From Eledone cirrhosa (lineage: Eukaryota), in NCBI GenBank assembly GCA_964016885.1, contig OZ024742.1, positions 290,098,001-290,162,000 on the forward strand: 64,000 nucleotides of DNA. The letters run 5' to 3'. Shown here one piece after another: positions 33,925-50,447 of the stretch. The position numbers and the translations under genes were made by a program. Positions within the stretch are counted from its first letter, which is position 1. Each line of letters opens with the position of its first letter. The notes beneath the pieces are model-generated. The model had not been told where the DNA came from and did not search any database. It saw only the letters and a list, made by a program, of their open reading frames with translations.

Positions 33925-37448
<3,524 letters not shown>

Positions 37449-40902: not shown

Positions 40903-42059
40903 TCAGAAGTATTTTTAATCTATGATATTCATTACACTTGACTATATCTTTATACACCTTTAAAATGATCCGTTTTCTTTAAAAATTAAAAAAAATTTTA
41001 AATGATCTTCCTTCTTAAATTTAGTATTTTTACCATTTGATATTATTTTCCTAATGATACTCTTATTAATTTTTTTTTAGATGTAGATTGATAATCTTTA
41101 ATTGACATTCTGAAAGATATCCTCTTTACAATAATTCTTCGAAATGTATAATACTTTTTTCCTCTTTTTAATCTTCAAACTTTTCACACATTTTTCGACA
41201 TGAATAATATGTAATTGAAATTCTCATCCTAGAAAAAATAATCTCACACAAAATAATATATAATTTTCTCTACATACTTTCTGAGTAAATCATTCATCAA
41301 ATTGAATGGTTAGCAAATAAGACTGGAGTTATCTTTTCCTTTACAACCGAGCAAAAACACAATTGATAACTTCTATGATAAACTATATAACTTCGCCAAA
41401 TTAACAATATTCTGAAAACATTTTCAATGTTGGAACAAAATGTTTGAATCTACAAATTGTTCTCCTCTTACAACTTGAACTACGTCTTTTTCTTAAATAT
41501 TTATGTAAAATGTAAAATCCTCCGTAACTCATTTTAGAAATGTAAACAATTAATACGTGCGTTTTATTTCAATAAAATCACCAATAATACTTAATACTTG
41601 CACAATTATTAATCTATTTATATATTTACAACCTGTTTTAATGTAATAAGATAAAATGTACTTACAACCATAATTCTTCATATAATCTAATTGATTATAT
41701 ATATACAATATTATAACTCATAATATAGATAAAGTAATTTTTTTTAAATTCTGTAATCATACTCCACCATTCCTACAAACTGTTAATCCTTTTTAAATTA
41801 ACGTAAATACAAGCTCTTCTTTCTTTCTTATTTCATTTCTTCCTCCTACACATACATATATATATCCTAATAATTATTTAAATCTATCTAGCGTCTAAAA
41901 ATAACTTTTTTTTCTTCAGACCTATACTTCAGCCTCATCTTAATAATTTGAAACATTTTACTTTTCTTCTCTTTCCCTTCTTTCCTTTACTATCCAGGAA
42001 TAACTTGAACCGTTAAGATCCTATTCCTGGTTATGTCAATATTTATAAAACAAACTTTG

Positions 42060-42119
42060 TATTTTATCTGAAGAGAGCGTACCAAAGTTTGGTACCCTTG
42101 AAATATATATAATAGAATA
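42060..42119 (+). ncRNA. Hammerhead ribozyme (family A)
   Basis: TATTTTAT-CTGAAGA-GAGCGTACCAAAGTTTGGTACCCTT-GAAA-TATATA-TA-ATAGAATA. Confidence 0.85.
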
Positions 42120-42453
42120 AATATGGTTTTATAAATATAGTTTCCATTTATTTAATATCATTGTATATATATATATATATATATATAAACGGAAAAAATG
42201 AAACGATATTTCATTTCCCACTCTTAGTACGGCTGTTACTTAAATATAAGTATGTACACGTACATACATATATGTATACCGACGTACAGTAGTATGTATA
42301 TATATATATACATACATGCACACATATATATATGCACGTATGGATTCACCGAACATTTATTATAATGCTCGGTGTGTTTGTAAACAAACATCCCGTATTA
42401 AGCCGTAGTGTCTAGCAACCACCGTTGCTCGTTTGTTCAACACTGACAAAGAA

Positions 42454-42496: not shown

Positions 42497-42757
42497 ATAC
42501 CTTCCTGCCAGATTGTTGAACGTATATACTTACCTTATGCATATTAACGGCTGAGTAGCCCAATTTGCATATCGAGTGGGTTAATCGGCCGGGTGCACCG
42601 AAAACGATAAACGGAAAAAATGAAACGATATTTCATTTCCCACTCTTAGTACGGCTGTTACTTAAATATAAGTATGTACACGTACATACATATATGTATA
42701 CCGACGTACAGTAGTATGATATTAAATAAATGGAAACTATATTTATAAAACCATATT

Positions 42758-42822
42758 TATTTTATTATATATATTTCAAGGGTAACCAAGACAACATTAG
42801 TACGCTTTCATCAGATAAAATA
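42758..42822 (-). ncRNA. Hammerhead ribozyme (family A), left arm of inverted repeat
   Basis: Reverse complement of 43250-43314 with one mismatch in stem II. Confidence 0.85.
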
Positions 42823-43249
42823 CAAAGTTTGTTTTATAAATAGAGACATACCCTTTGAAAACCATACCTTATCGGTTGGAAATTCACTGGATAGTGAAAA
42901 TATATTAGGGATTATTCAAACTTATATGTGAATATGCAAATGAATATGTAAATAATTGAAAAACAACCGTTTATTTAAATGACACTGGAGAAAGAGAGAG
43001 AGAAAAAAATAAAAAAATGGAAATTAACAAGAGGATGAATAACACTCATATAACGTAATTTGGAGGAAATATATTCTAAGTATATATCTAATGATACGTG
43101 TATTTACGATTAATTATTTGTTAAAATTCTTTTCTAATATAATATTTACTGTTATAAGTAGATAGAAAAATATTTCCACTATCCAGTGAATTTCCAACCG
43201 ATAAGGTATGATTTTCATGGGTATGTCTCTATTTATAAAACAAACTTTG

Positions 43250-43314
43250 TATTTTATCTGATGAAAGCGTACCAATGTTGTCTTGGTTACCCTTGAAATA
43301 TATATAATAAAATA
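43250..43314 (+). ncRNA. Hammerhead ribozyme (family A), right arm of inverted repeat
   Basis: TATTTTAT-CTGATGA-AAGCGTACCAA..TTGGTTACCCTT-GAAA-TATATA-TA-ATAAAATA; perfect 8-bp stem I. Confidence 0.9.
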
Positions 43315-43377
43315 AATATGGTTTTATAAATCTAGTTTCCATTTATTTAATATCATTGAATTATATATATATATATA

Positions 43378-46300
43378 TACGCTACTTTAATATCTTCAAA
43401 TAACCAAAGGTTCACTCACATAAGAAAAAAGTATATACAAATACACGTGCTTTTCCTACAAACTCGCAAGTAAGTTTTCTTAACTACAAATTATTATTAT
43501 ATACACTCGTTTTTCCTTGAATATCTTCAAACAACCAAATAACCCAAAAAAAAGTGTATACAAATACACGTGCTTTTCCTACAAACTCGCAAGTACGTTT
43601 TCTTAACTACAAATTATTATATACACTCGTTTTTCCTTGAATATTTTCAAACAACCAAAAACTATTAACATGCTCGAACAACCAAAACTCACATCCATAA
43701 GAGAGAATATATATATATACACGATTCTTTAATTTCTTCAAATAACCAAAGGCTCACTCAAATATAAAAAAAACAAACAAACATGATTACTGACCAGCAA
43801 GCCTACAACAGACGAAATTGGTCTGATAATGAAATTGACCTCTTAATAAACACATGGTTTTCTCTGTCCCAAACAATAAACATTAACGCTTCGTGTCTGA
43901 ATGAGATTGCTGAAAAAACAGCTCAAACATTCACCACGAGGTCTGCTAAGCAGATACACAACAAACTAAAACACGTCGAAGTCTCTTTCAAACTAATTCA
44001 AAACCATTTTGAAAAACTTCAACATTTTTACTCCAATGGTCAAACACAATAACAACAGCCAGAAAATCAGGAGCCACCACCACTACTGTATTCAAGCATA
44101 ATAGCTGAGTTACTGAATGACAGTATCGCTCAACCACTTTCTCAGCCATCATTATCGCCATCATCATCACCACCGTCATTATCTTCAGCCAGTAATGGAT
44201 CACTGCTTTCGGCGATATCCAATTTTAGTGGACTAAATGCTGCTTACTTCAATGTATGAGGCTATTCCAACAAATTTACATTCCCTTTTTTTTAGCCGTT
44301 AAAAGAAATATAGATTTATTTATTGTTTTTTTTTTGCGATTTATTTGCCACGTTTTTGTTTGTTTGTTTTGTTTTTTTTGCCGATCTGTGGGGATATGTC
44401 GCCGGCCAACAAATGGTCCTCTTCTTCCGATACCACTTCGAAAGAAGGATCAAGGTGGAGAGAAAGGCACTCAGTCCCAGCCAATTCCATGAAAGATGGG
44501 TGAAAGTAGCAATAATGGCCCGTGTAAGTGGGCCATCTCTCTATATCGGCTTGTACAGGTAAGAGAAGAAGGGAGCACCCCCCTCTCTCTGTGCTCCCTG
44601 GCAGAAAGGTCGCACACTTTCTACGGGGGTGTGTGTGACCCCAAAAGGCTGCCTCTCTATTGAGGACTTAATTTTTTATATTTCTTTTTAATCACTCGTT
44701 AAATGTTTGTACTTGATTCTTGTAAAAACTTCCCCCGTGGCAAATAAAGAAATCGTGGCAAAAACGAGGCAAATAAAGAAATCTATGCCCCAGTGGCAAA
44801 TAAATCGCAAAAAAAAAAACAATAAATAAATCTATATTTCTTTTAACAGCTAAAAAAAAGGGAATGTAAATTTGTTGGAATAGCCTCATACATTGAAGTA
44901 AACAGCAACTACAGCACGTAAGCAGCATTTAGTCCACTAAAATTGGATATCGCCCTGCTTTCTCTCCTACCACTCTCACAGCCTCCATCACAGTTGTCAT
45001 CATCATCATTGTCACCACCACTGCCGCTATCGTATTCTACCATGTCAACTAATATCAATGAAAAACCACTGCTTTCTTCCCCCACATCACCACCACAGTC
45101 ATGCTGTAGTCAAAAGAACTTTTTTAAAAAATCTATGGAGTTGTATGCACCTCCCACTACACAAACTAGAAACCCCAAAATATGCCGCTACTCACTACGT
45201 CAGAGGCTATGCACATGTAGCGACTGCATATTTACCCATTTACCAGGTACTAGACGCACTAACACTGCCAGCCAACACCAAAGCACGCTGCCCACACGCA
45301 TAAGTCGGAGTTCCAAAATCTGCCGACATTCTCAACTTGAGAGACTATGTCTGCTGACTGACTGTCCCTTCACTCATCTTCCTGAGACACAACGCACGAA
45401 CGGAAAAGGGCCTCCATGCCAACACACAAACCACAATAAAGCCACCCCCTGCTGCAGTAATGCTGCTCCAGTCTTTTCACAAAGACACGATTACAACAAA
45501 TACAACAACAACAAAAGTAATGCTGCTCCAGTCTTTTCACAAAGACACAATTACAACAAATACAATAACAACAACAACAAAAGAGGGAACTGCAACCATA
45601 TCCAATGGTGTAACCACAAATCCAATCAAAAACTGCTCCCTGAACAAGAAAATTTTTCTTTTTTAGCCATGAACCTGGTAAAAGAGATACAGAAAAACAT
45701 TTTAGCCATCACCCAACACCATCCTTGCTGTCACTAACACACAATCTCAAAATAAGCCCCCTGCAACAGTCAAAACCAGCCACCATACTAGCCTCCACAT
45801 TTTTACTCACTACATAAGGTATCAGCCTATCCATCAATGCACAGAAATGGAAGATCCAATTCACTATGGATTGGGTTGGTAACCATCCATTTCACATCCC
45901 CTTCTTCATTCTTACTGAGACCCACCTTGACAACTCCCACTTGGAGGCCGAAGTAAGAGTGAGGAATTTCACAACCATCCATGCGGATCGTGTTGGCAAA
46001 AGGAAGGATGGAACTGCCATTTTCCTGCATGATTCCTTTACAGCAGATGGTAACACAACATTCTCTAATGGATACTGTGAATCAGTCACTGTGCACAACA
46101 AAGCCAATGACCTGATATTAGTTGGGCTCTATAGGCCACCACAAACACCCATAATCTGCTTCAAAGAATGCCTCAACAGCATTAAATGCTTTATTAAACA
46201 GTGCCATTCTAGCAACATACTTTTGATGAGAGACTTTAATCTACCCTGTGTCGATTGGTCTACATGTAGTTTGAAACCAGGCATCCCAACCTCAACCACT

Positions 46301-48108
46301 GACAAAGAAGCAGTCGAGTCACTTCTTGACTTCATAAATGAGTTTTTCTTGTCCCAACTTGTCCTTGCACCAACAAGGCATCAGAAGAACATTCTGGATC
46401 TAGTGTTTAGTAACCACACTAACACTATACATATTATTACAGTGGAAAAAACCCTTCTCTCAGACCATGACATGGTTCTTCGTAACCTGAGATTCAACCA
46501 GCCGAAAGCTAATCCTAGGGACCTTTTTCCAGCCCACCCATTTGATAACATGGATCTCCACAATGCCAACTGGGATGCAATTATGAACGAACTATCACAT
46601 GTTGACTGGTCTTTTACACATACACACATTTCCACCAACATCAAAACATCTTGGCAGATCTTTGTAGACACTGTCACAAATATATGTACAAAACACAAAC
46701 ACACCCCACCAAAACCTGTGAACAAAACTAAGTGCAGTAACCCCCAAAATAGAAAAAACAATTATCATAAAAATAAAAAGAACAAACAAAAAGATTAACA
46801 CACTAAAATACTGCCAACAGCAACACACACATTCGACAGCTATTGCCCTGCTTGAATAAAAAAAAATATAACCTCCAACAATGCATGAAGACCATCATCA
46901 ATAACCAGAGAACAGCTGAAGAGAGGTGAGCCATTGAGAAAATCAAACTCAACCCCAAAGTGTTCTTTTCACTCGCTAAAAAACACAAGGTCACCGTCTC
47001 CACTGTTGGCCCTCTAGTTGATGAAAATGGCACACTCCAAGATAATGCTAAAACCATGGGCGAAATACTGCAGAAACAATACTGCTCTGTTTTCAGCAAT
47101 CCTGATATGGCCAATCTGGGCTGTATCAGTGATGGTAATCCCCAACACACTATATCGGACATAACGTTTGGCGCCCCTGATGTGTTAGCAGGAATAAACG
47201 AAATTAAACACAATTCAGCAGTAGGCCCCGACAGGTTCCCTGCTTGTGTCCTGAAGGTCTGTCGACACCAACTTGCATCTCCTCTTGCTAATCTGTGGAG
47301 GAACTCACTGGATACTGGCTATATTCCTGAAAACTTTCTGTCCCAGTCATCATAAAGGGAAATAAGTCCCTTGCAGTGAACTACCGTCCGATCTCGCTCA
47401 CCTCCCATATTATCAAAGTATTTGAGAGGGTGGTGAGATCACGAATAACCCACTTTCTTGAAAGCAACGGCCTGCTGAACTCCAACCAACATGGGTTCTG
47501 TAATGGAAGGGACTGCCTAATGCAGCTCTGCATCACTTTGACAATGTTTTGAGAGCCTTGGGAGAGGACTCCAACACTGATCTCATCTACCTTGATTTCA
47601 GCAAGGCCTTCGACAGTGTTGATCATAAGATTCTACTGAAAAAACTATCCAATGTTGGTGTCTCTGGAAGGTTACTACAGTGGATCAAATGTTTCCTGAC
47701 AGACAGAACCTAAGATGTTGTAGTTGAAGGAGTAAAATCAAGCCCTGCCAAAGTCAGCAGTGGCGTCCCATAAGGCACTGTGTTGGGCCCACTTCTTTTC
47801 ATCATCTACATTAATGACATTACTGACATCATCAAGCACAGCAACATAAGAATCTTCGCAGATGATTCCAAGCTCCAAAGGGTTATCAATGAGGTGGGTG
47901 ACCGGAGTTGCCTTCAGTCAGACCTACTGGCTGTTATCCAATGGGTAGAGATGAATAATATGCTGTTGAATGAGGATAAGTTTGAATTAATCCACTTTGG
48001 AAAAAAGGATGCTCTGAAACTACCATACTCTCTTCCTTCGGGTGAAACTCTAGTGGCATCCAACAACATCAGAGACCTGGGAGTAATTGTGGATAACAAC
48101 ATAAGCTG
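43378..48108 (+). mobile_element. CR1/L2-group LINE: repeated 5' UTR, ORF1 (43783-45737, interrupted), ORF2 APE+RT (degenerate, 3'-truncated)
   Basis: LTETHL, LYRPP, DFNLP, ILDLVF, SDH; NYRPISL, LDFSKAFDSVDH, SGVP*GTVLGPLLF, FADD. Confidence 0.9.
44211..44954. mobile_element. Non-autonomous TIR element (Merlin-like) with 8-bp TSD
   Basis: ~140-bp TIRs starting GGCGATATCC; TSD CTGCTTTC at 44203-44210 and 44955-44962. Confidence 0.9.
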
Positions 48109-48445
48109 GATTCTTATAGAATTCCAGTAATAATCAGGAGCTGATTATACAGCAAAAATTAGGTATTAGGATTGGTGCTCTGAAATAGCGATGTATACAT
48201 GAATGTATGTATAGTATATTTGACAATATACCGTATGTTTAATTAAAAACATTTTGAAGGCCATACGCTATCGGTTTTAAAGTAGTGACTATGTCACTTA
48301 CTTCTTTTCGGTGAAAGAAGTGAGAGAAGCTACCTAATTTTTGCTGAACCGGCAATCGCGCTGTATAATCAGCTCCTGATTATTACTGGAATTCTATAAA
48401 AATCCAGCTTCTATAATTTTTGGCGAAAGCGGGGGGGGAGTGCGT

Positions 48446-49357: not shown

Positions 49358-49360
<3 letters not shown>

Positions 49361-50200
49361 TGCATCTTCGCTTATCCGAAATTCGATTTACCGGACGGCT
49401 ATTTCTCTTCATTGGAAAAGCGAAGCGGCCAAGATGTTTTGCAGGAATCATCATGGAGAACTTGTCGGTCACCTATCGGAATACGAAGAATGCTTGGGTA
49501 ACTCTAGAAATTTTCGGCGAATGGTTTCACAAAGTTTTCATTCCGTTTGTCCGTTCTGCTTTTGTTAAGATGGGGATGAAGACAAAAGCGATTCTTGTTT
49601 TGGACAATTGTGCAGCGCATCCGGATGAGAAGGACTTGATTTCGGCAGACGGACAGATTCGGGCAGCATTTCTTCCGGCGAACGTTACGTCACTTATTCA
49701 GCCAATGGACCAAGGAGTTTTGGAGACACTAAAGCGGATTTACAGAAAACAATTGCTGCGGGATTTGATCGGAAAAGGGGACACGGTAATGATTCCATTT
49801 TTACGTGCGATAAACATGAGGGAGGTGGTTGACCGTTCAGCTGTTGTGTGGGACTCGATAACTGAGGAAACTTTGAATCTATCGTGGAAAAAATTGATGT
49901 CGGATGAGAACAAGAACAATGCGGAAGGAAACGAGGACAATTACGAAATTTTAATTACGGACAAAGCGCTTTTAACAGGTTTGACAGAAATTGCTGGTGA
50001 GAGTTCGGCGGAAGATTTGATCGAATGCTTTGAGAATGACGGGTTAGGGTATGAACATTTCGATGACGTCGGAATTGTTGAACACGTAAGTCGAAAGGGG
50101 GATGACGAAGAAGAAGAGGAAGTTTTAGTCGAAAAAGTTGTCGAGAAACGCCCCGTGACGCATATCATTATATAGACCAATTTTTAACATATTTGAGGTA
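49358..50200 (+). mobile_element. Tigger/pogo transposon, internally deleted (TIR joined to DDE domain)
   Basis: TA|CAGTG..CGCTTATCCGA terminus; IGKAKRPRCF, NAWVT, LVLDNCAAH, FLPANVTSLIQPMDQGV. Confidence 0.9.
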
Positions 50201-50244
50201 TGAGTCTGTTTATATATATACAGACACACACACATACAGAGACC

Positions 50245-50447
50245 GGACATGCCATCAATCAGATCTACTTGCTGTTATACAATGGGCGGAGAAAAACAAT
50301 ATGCTACTGAACAAGGATAAATTTGAACTAATCTACTTTGGAAAAACGGATGCACTGAAATAGCTTATTCTCTTTCCTTGGGTGAAACACTCGTGACATG
50401 CAACATCAGAGACCTAGGTTGTACGTAATTGTTGATAACAACCTAGC
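50245..50447 (+). mobile_element. Diverged fragment of the same CR1/L2-group RT
   Basis: Aligns to 47905-48105 (QSDLLAVIQW..NKDKFELI..NIRDLG). Confidence 0.8.

Follow-up and report, generated by a model that had tools for sequence, protein, structure and literature searches.

TRAS elements contain a Myb domain in ORF2. Myb-directed targeting has a precedent in R2 and Dong (PMC7998251); in addition, fusions of a Myb to TRAS1EN were engineered and reported to cut Myb-bound repeats (PMC2868851). Target-specific families are mostly early-branched or belong to the Tx1 or R1 groups (PMC4640811). Like the elements described here, Tx1 and R1 elements (PMC4640811; TRAS1, PMC2868851) are APE elements that target repeats, microsatellites included; however, they belong to other clades and their specificity is attributed largely to the endonuclease (EN). 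Dictyostelium TRE5-A (PMC5911963) is also an APE-type LINE with a -1 frameshift into ORF2 and an ORF1 implicated in target choice, but it is a member of the L1 clade whose ORF1p binds host TFIIIB near tRNA genes, and that account gives it neither a captured DNA-binding domain nor a microsatellite target. The type III (PHD) ORF1 of CR1 elements (Metcalfe and Casane 2014, PMC4120745) is found in elements with two ORFs, an APE-RT ORF2, a short tandem 3' tail and a modular ORF1, all of which are shared by the present group; here, on the other hand, a Myb/SANT-like N-terminus replaces the PHD and insertion into (TA)n is near-absolute. The terms Myb, SANT and CCCH do not occur in the main text of PMC4120745, and Myb is unmentioned in the available portions of PMC13343379 and PMC5203782. 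For Octopus vulgaris, 13 recently active CR1 families were reported, with Myb, ORF and target unmentioned in the available part of that source (PMC13282606). None of the titles and abstract openings listed in a literature search dealt with a Myb ORF1 or a TA-specific CR1, although Repbase, Dfam and supplements beyond its reach may record either.

The element analysed here was recognised in a window (the whole stretch of DNA that was analysed, 64,000 nucleotides from Eledone cirrhosa). It is a decayed copy from a CR1-clade LINE group that is abundant in octopus. Its features in the window are as follows.

43362-43379, no strand: (TA)9 tract at the 5' junction of the 5'-truncated copy, either the target or the element's own UTR TA tract (a similar internal unit lies at 43707)
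43380-43782, plus strand: rest of the CR1 family A 5' UTR, with direct repeats of ~123 bp (repeat analysis)
43783-44210, plus strand: 5' part of ORF1, with ATG at 43783 (reading frame)
43810-44010, plus strand: Myb/SANT-like domain, PF13837 positions 1-73 (E=1.3e-7, 32.4 bits)
44050-44052, plus strand: private nonsense codon within a Gln-rich stretch (CAA in 19/20 family-A loci)
44203-44210, no strand: left 8-bp TSD (identical flanks)
44211-44954, no strand: MITE (non-autonomous TIR element), private to the window copy, with perfect 37-nt terminal inverted repeats at 44211-44247 and 44918-44954
44955-44962, no strand: right 8-bp TSD (identical flanks)
44963-45737, plus strand: 3' part of ORF1, comprising Ser/Pro linker, two CCCH fingers, Asn-rich stretch, conserved Phe-Leu tail and stop
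45183-45239, plus strand: CCCH finger 1, C-x8-C-x4-C-x3-H (motif)
45321-45377, plus strand: CCCH finger 2, a duplicate of the same third-finger type (motif, ORF1 alignment)
45659-45665, plus strand: T TTT TTA heptamer in the ORF1 register, predicted -1 frameshift site into ORF2 (alternatively, a splice acceptor)
45665-48102, plus strand: decayed ORF2, with APE at ~45818-46477 and RT at ~47379-48088; 3' end not found in the window
48103-48410, no strand: second inverted-repeat element with 51-nt arms, at the end of the LINE match

The original prediction held that removal of the TIR element and one TSD would rejoin an ORF1 of about 400 codons with one TAA and two CCCH repeats, lying directly upstream of an APE-RT ORF2 and beginning with a Myb/SANT-like domain. 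All of this was borne out. The flanks of the TIR element match at 8 bp only among the lengths 2-13, and the rejoined frame has 400 codons, a single internal TAA and both C-x8-C-x4-C-x3-H motifs. Its N-terminal 89 aa matched PF13837 (Myb_DNA-bind_4) above the curated cut-off of 27 bits, as the sole Pfam family listed, while the CCCH region stayed below the Pfam cut-offs (zf-C3H1, E=8e-4; Nab2-type, E=5e-3). The downstream frames matched PF14529 (E=7e-13) and, below cut-off, RVT_1 (E ~1e-5); stops and frameshifts interrupt them. At 44050, 19 of 20 family-A loci read CAA and the remaining one GAA, and the TAA of the window is a private CAA>TAA change. With the MITE, this nonsense codon, the broken ORF2 and no 3' end found within the window, the copy is dead; it is 90-95% identical to other copies of its family.

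In the ~3.0 Gb genome searched, the Myb segment gave 150 matches among 150 scored (933 candidates), which fall into two groups, families A and B. Forty loci were fetched from this match list, partly for their long open frames. As the original prediction required, other copies join the Myb to the rest of the element: the Myb is followed by the CCCH region in 38 of the 40 and by the CCCH region and EN, collinear, in 36, and the MITE was seen in ORF1 of none of the 40. Family A, that of the window, is older than family B, and in it one open frame spans the Myb through both fingers. Its sister, family B, is very young: over 3 kb, seven of eight further intact copies share 99.8-99.9% identity with L051 (the eighth, 98.9%), and the last 60 residues are identical in 148 of 150 scored matches (7998 candidates). 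Of 20 family-B loci, 16 have an uninterrupted ORF1 and nine have both ORFs intact. The Myb+CCCH ORF1 is, in short, a real family-wide architecture. A further young and abundant CR1, family D (L248:3480-8370), carries a Myb, an acidic/basic linker and one CCCH finger behind a CT-rich 5' UTR, and a search with its sequence also gave 150 matches among 150 scored. One homologue is labelled Octopus vulgaris, and each of five organism labels contains at least 36% of the sampled words of the family-B Myb region; one of the five may be the source of the DNA.

The intact ORF2 matched only RVT_1 and Exo_endo_phos in Pfam, that is, an N-terminal APE and an RT with no RNase H or RLE. The 3' ends of CR1-clade elements are short tandem repeats rather than poly(A), and the tails of A and B consist of a 9-10-nt unit in 1-4 copies. 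Pfam scans of the ORF1s of A, B and D detected none of the domains of CR1 ORF1 types I-IV (RRM, CCHC, PHD, esterase). Table S7 of PMC10294476 classes the O. sinensis RT clusters 33, 211, 201 and 104 as CR1, and in the printed alignment these correspond by eye to families B, A, C and D, respectively, C being a PHD-ORF1 CR1 of the genome searched here. The nearest named RT is from Argonauta hians. In an RT tree of 45 of 120 database RTs, which included no named clade references and in which three family-A references were without a long enough RT hit, the Argonauta RT is the sister of A+B (100/98), and C groups with D (100/98) in what was flagged as a long-branch join. A search for another sister family with the Argonauta RT stretch gave 30 loci, all B copies except one A copy. 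O.sinensis_156/25/48 (file 23 of PMC10294476) represents another CR1 cluster near A and B.

Purifying selection acts on the Myb. Its dN/dS between A and B was 0.19 at a dS of 1.47, compared with 0.16 for EN and 0.15 for RT (values pooled over pairs of each A copy with one B copy, the B-type locus L045 being dropped). PF13837 was matched above the cut-off by the window copy and by P0004 (31.7 bits), and below it, yet as the best hit, by B (23.9 bits) and D (17.3 bits, E=0.006); D has a homologous Myb (hhalign 96.7%, E=3e-10). In helix 3, an Arg, a Gln and two Lys are invariant across 11 LINE rows. Models lend the Myb fold partial support. That of the D domain (pLDDT 80; two host rows in its alignment) has three helices, the third long, and was ranked with ARR1, LUX, RAD, PHR and SANT domains (top Z 7.6, rmsd 2.0-2.4, 56-58 aligned). 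For the B model (pLDDT 78), no clear match to a Myb fold emerged, and VIA listed only unrelated helical hits. Foldseek with the B and D models found no match at E<=0.001, LINE-only Myb profiles matched no Myb among solved structures, a GT-1 hit (E=0.003) appeared only when the alignment included the two host rows, and the ESM Atlas gave no hits.

Outside LINEs, the closest sequences detected belong to host Myb/SANT genes of this genome, with 27% identity over 64 aa and a profile probability of 88.6%. Host Myb/SANT-like proteins (MSANTD, GT-1 trihelix, Harbinger ORF) share the PF13837 match, and the helix-1 and helix-3 motifs align. The nearest host gene is without the C-terminal helical extension common to the LINE Mybs. 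These relatives are two exons 35 kb apart (L113 and L114, G000:C24), one of which adjoins an ORF resembling, by eye, a death-domain adaptor. PIF/Harbinger elements combine a Myb gene with a DDE transposase within TIRs; in the fetched loci the Myb instead lies in a LINE ORF1, and no transposase-like ORF was seen by eye in the fetched DNA near the two closest host sequences. Word-indexed protein searches for a full-length Myb-ORF1 relative or donor found none (0/9 candidates, 0/7986 scored), which is weak evidence of absence.

A search with the whole ORF1 found 17 proteins, and those matching its C-terminal half include proteins of 499 and 538 aa with a PHD-like Cys pattern and three CCCH fingers. 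This genome has the same type in the ORF1 of family C, whose PHD match (E=0.02) is below the cut-off. The Myb-CR1s share a homologous CCCH finger and Phe-Leu tail with the PHD+3xCCCH ORF1s (family C, P0011, P0012): A and B retain a duplicated third finger together with the tail, and D retains one finger of the first type. By sequence comparison, the A/B fingers derive from the third finger of such ORF1s and the Myb is the new module. The original prediction, that domain capture had produced an unusual ORF1, stands for the Myb, which is new and family-wide, but not for the CCCH fingers, which are inherited. Because related ORF1s have a PHD-type N-terminus instead, gain of the Myb is the simplest reading. 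P0011 has a weak N-terminal Tudor-knot/MBT hit (E ~1e-3), possibly another N-terminal module on the same scaffold.

Families appear to have passed such 5' ends to one another. In 4 of 18 family-C loci, those extending far enough 5' (L091:7600-8400 on the minus strand, L092, L101 and L102), the leader contains what is left of a Myb, internally deleted, lacking a start codon and interrupted by one stop, followed by a remnant of the Ser/Pro linker. The Myb remnant is 49-53% identical to the database Myb variants P0016 and P0006; its identity to B, measured on a shorter stretch, is 53-58%. Judged from these features, it is a fossil of 5' cassette exchange. The A-B dS is 1.2-1.5 in the Myb, EN and linker and 0.5-0.7 in the RT half, and A-versus-B identity steps from 0.72-0.77 to 0.83-0.89 at about L051 4370-4400 (EN-linker/RT), which is likely a recombination point. 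Together, the remnant in C, the finger types and the drop in dS point to an exchange of 5' cassettes between families.

The Myb families insert almost only in (TA)n. At least (TA)4 was found within 30 nt of the 3' junction in 12/12 insertions of A, 56/57 of B and 29/30 of D, in contrast to 8/29 of C and 9/30 of an RTE-type LINE (Fisher p<=5e-5 in all six contrasts); for these counts the tail repeat was removed, insertions were deduplicated, and hits under the identity cut, short of the 3' end or flanked by N were dropped. The (TA)n background amounts to 6% in the window, 6.5% in loci of family C and 19-23% in other loci that were fetched; the Myb-less LINEs, at ~30%, are enriched over it as well. 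The 5' truncation points were at (TA)n in 23/27 cases for B, 10/15 for D, 4/16 for C and 5/11 for RTE, the contrast between D and RTE not being significant (p=0.43), and 10 of 12 distinct near-full-length 5' ends of A abut TA tracts by eye. The dominant repeat variant was common to both flanks in 25 of 33 insertions (two locus pairs may be duplicates), compared with 11.4 in shuffles, none of 5000 of which reached the observed count. Because the flanks share locus-specific variants, the repeat is the target and predates the insertion rather than being a tail, and both junctions lie in the same pre-existing repeat, as expected of a target-specific non-LTR element. Family D had been taken as a control on its RT alone and proved to have both the Myb ORF1 and (TA)n targeting. 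The group is a real new CR1 ORF1 variant with strong (TA)n specificity. Since the Myb families are almost always in TA repeats, unlike their Myb-less relatives, the borrowed DNA-binding domain likely steers insertion. This link is drawn from five families, three with the Myb and two without; A and B being closely related, the positives amount to about two independent ones.

How a domain encoded by ORF1 could be joined to the EN and RT is suggested by the junction of the two frames. ORF2 overlaps ORF1 in the -1 frame in A, B, C and D, and no Met precedes the first EN motif in B, C and D (the window copy of A is broken there). ORF2 opens a few codons (26 in D) upstream of T TTT TTA G in the ORF1 register. 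The heptamer U_UUU_UUA, a known shift site (PMC5009743), was present in 20/20 loci of B, 18/18 of C, 11/13 of D and 12/19 of A, and in 0/20 other Phe-Leu pairs; a Phe-Leu pair stands at the aligned place in four of seven database ORF1 proteins. A heptamer of the X_XXY_YYZ form thus lies in register with an overlapping -1 ORF. The first ORF2 Met after it comes at 139 (B), 140 (C) and 72 (D) codons, beyond the first EN motif. As for a stimulatory RNA structure 3' of the heptamer, 75-nt folds were no stabler than shuffles (z -0.3 to +1.2; pseudoknots are outside the model), and T6AG can also be read as a splice acceptor. Because it is also present in the weakly targeting family C, the heptamer is older than targeting. 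The translation of ORF2 is treated in PMC3894237. For the present group, a Myb-CCCH-EN-RT product is predicted, probably joined by a -1 ribosomal frameshift.

The reading that we prefer, to which about an even chance is given, is that the Myb binds (TA)n and reaches the EN and RT through this frameshift fusion at the conserved U_UUU_UUA. It starts from the architecture, Myb selection, target bias, heptamer and lack of an AUG before the first EN motif observed in the analysis. CCCH fingers bind RNA, and those of a normally produced ORF1p would bind the element RNA. A few percent of ribosomes would shift -1 into ORF2 to yield the fusion, which the Myb would anchor at TA tracts; the APE would nick at the tethered tract, and 1-4 nt of 3' microhomology would prime reverse transcription. 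A fuller history can be offered only tentatively: the Myb may have been captured once by an octopod CR1, the 5' cassette being passed among families whose RTs are 45-53% identical and which would thereby become (TA)n-specific, with a retrovirus-like -1 frameshift building an R2-like Myb-EN-RT targeting enzyme out of a two-ORF APE LINE. The Myb would then be a portable module, on when gained and off when lost, as in C.

It is rather unlikely that specificity resides instead in the EN or in pairing of the 3' tail, with the Myb otherwise employed (in chromatin or protein binding as a SANT-like domain, RNA binding, or regulation at 5' UTR TA tracts) and merely travelling with a targeting EN. The APE has been implicated in the specificity of Tx1 and R1 (PMC2868851, PMC4640811), and judging by the step in dS, the 5' UTR-ORF1-EN half apparently moves as one cassette. 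However, EN identity is 39% between C and D, 34-35% between A/B and D, and 30% between B and C. The D EN is therefore closer to that of the weakly targeting C than to those of A and B, so that targeting follows the Myb rather than EN kinship and two separate origins of EN specificity would be needed. TA stands at the end of the A, B and D tails, but those of C and RTE also offer AT microhomology, and locus-specific variants often start right at the junction, which argues against the copying of a long (UA)n tail. TA tracts occur in the UTRs of A and B, but the D UTR is CT-rich.

That the Myb targets as free ORF1p in the RNP, with ORF2 made by a non-AUG start, reinitiation or splicing at T6AG, is considered unlikely. 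The same correlation of Myb and targeting is predicted in that case; T6AG could plausibly serve as an acceptor, in A and B behind a long pyrimidine tract, no stimulator was found downstream, and ORF1 of TRE5 was reported to target via TFIIIB (PMC5911963). Yet only T6AG is common to the families, purines precede it in C and D, a crude donor scan of B, C and D found no common donor in the needed phase, and a splice from UTR to acceptor in B supplies no AUG. GTRAGT donor-like motifs are present in the 5' UTR repeats of A and B (L051:1529, L051:1747 and window 43450).

Random insertion followed by survival in (TA)n, or seeding of the microsatellite by insertion, is very improbable: TA tracts are abundant in the genome and all LINEs tested are TA-enriched, but near-identical young copies are already 98% in (TA)n, C and RTE copies in the same genome reach only ~30%, and variants are common to both flanks. 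The chance that the Myb segment is a fortuitous neighbour or an artefact of the in-silico join is negligible, because, although the window copy needs MITE removal and stop readthrough, the intact family-B ORF1s and the open family-A frame require no join and the Myb precedes the CCCH region in 38 of the 40 fetched loci.

Known Myb-directed targeting belongs to RLE elements. R2 and R4/Dong (PMC7998251, PMC13708176) differ from the present group, in which the Myb lies in the ORF1 of an APE element; in place of a single ORF with a restriction-like endonuclease, there is a separate ORF1 and an APE-RT ORF2. If specificity in CR1 follows an ORF1 Myb, the shuffling of ORF1 domains would acquire a concrete function. 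Intact natural elements would make the role of captured ORF1 domains and the translation of an AUG-less ORF2 testable, and D and C form a natural targeting/non-targeting pair within one genome. The Myb-CR1 families are among the young, abundant octopus LINEs and would shape TA-rich DNA. A swappable DNA-binding module on an APE-RT could also be of interest for gene-insertion tools.

Several other repeats were noticed around these loci. An inverted-repeat element with 168-nt arms (90%) at 42693-43379 of the window ends in the TA tract at the LINE 5' junction, and related pieces lie at 42024-42166. A DDE_1 (pogo/Tigger-like) transposase fragment (49358-50175, E=1e-32) adjoins a long (TA)n, and a second, diverged fragment of the same LINE group, with 80-83% identity, is found at 50241-50441. 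At L051 (200-1340 and 6960-7500), a long inverted repeat, by eye similar to a Penelope-like element, surrounds a central TA tract in which the LINE sits. Octopus RTE elements are treated in PMC9115989; the RTE-type LINE seen here (window 36838-37200, loci L313-L342) has an (ATG)n tail and ~30% of its junctions at (TA)n, and is very abundant, with 107,385 first-look candidates.
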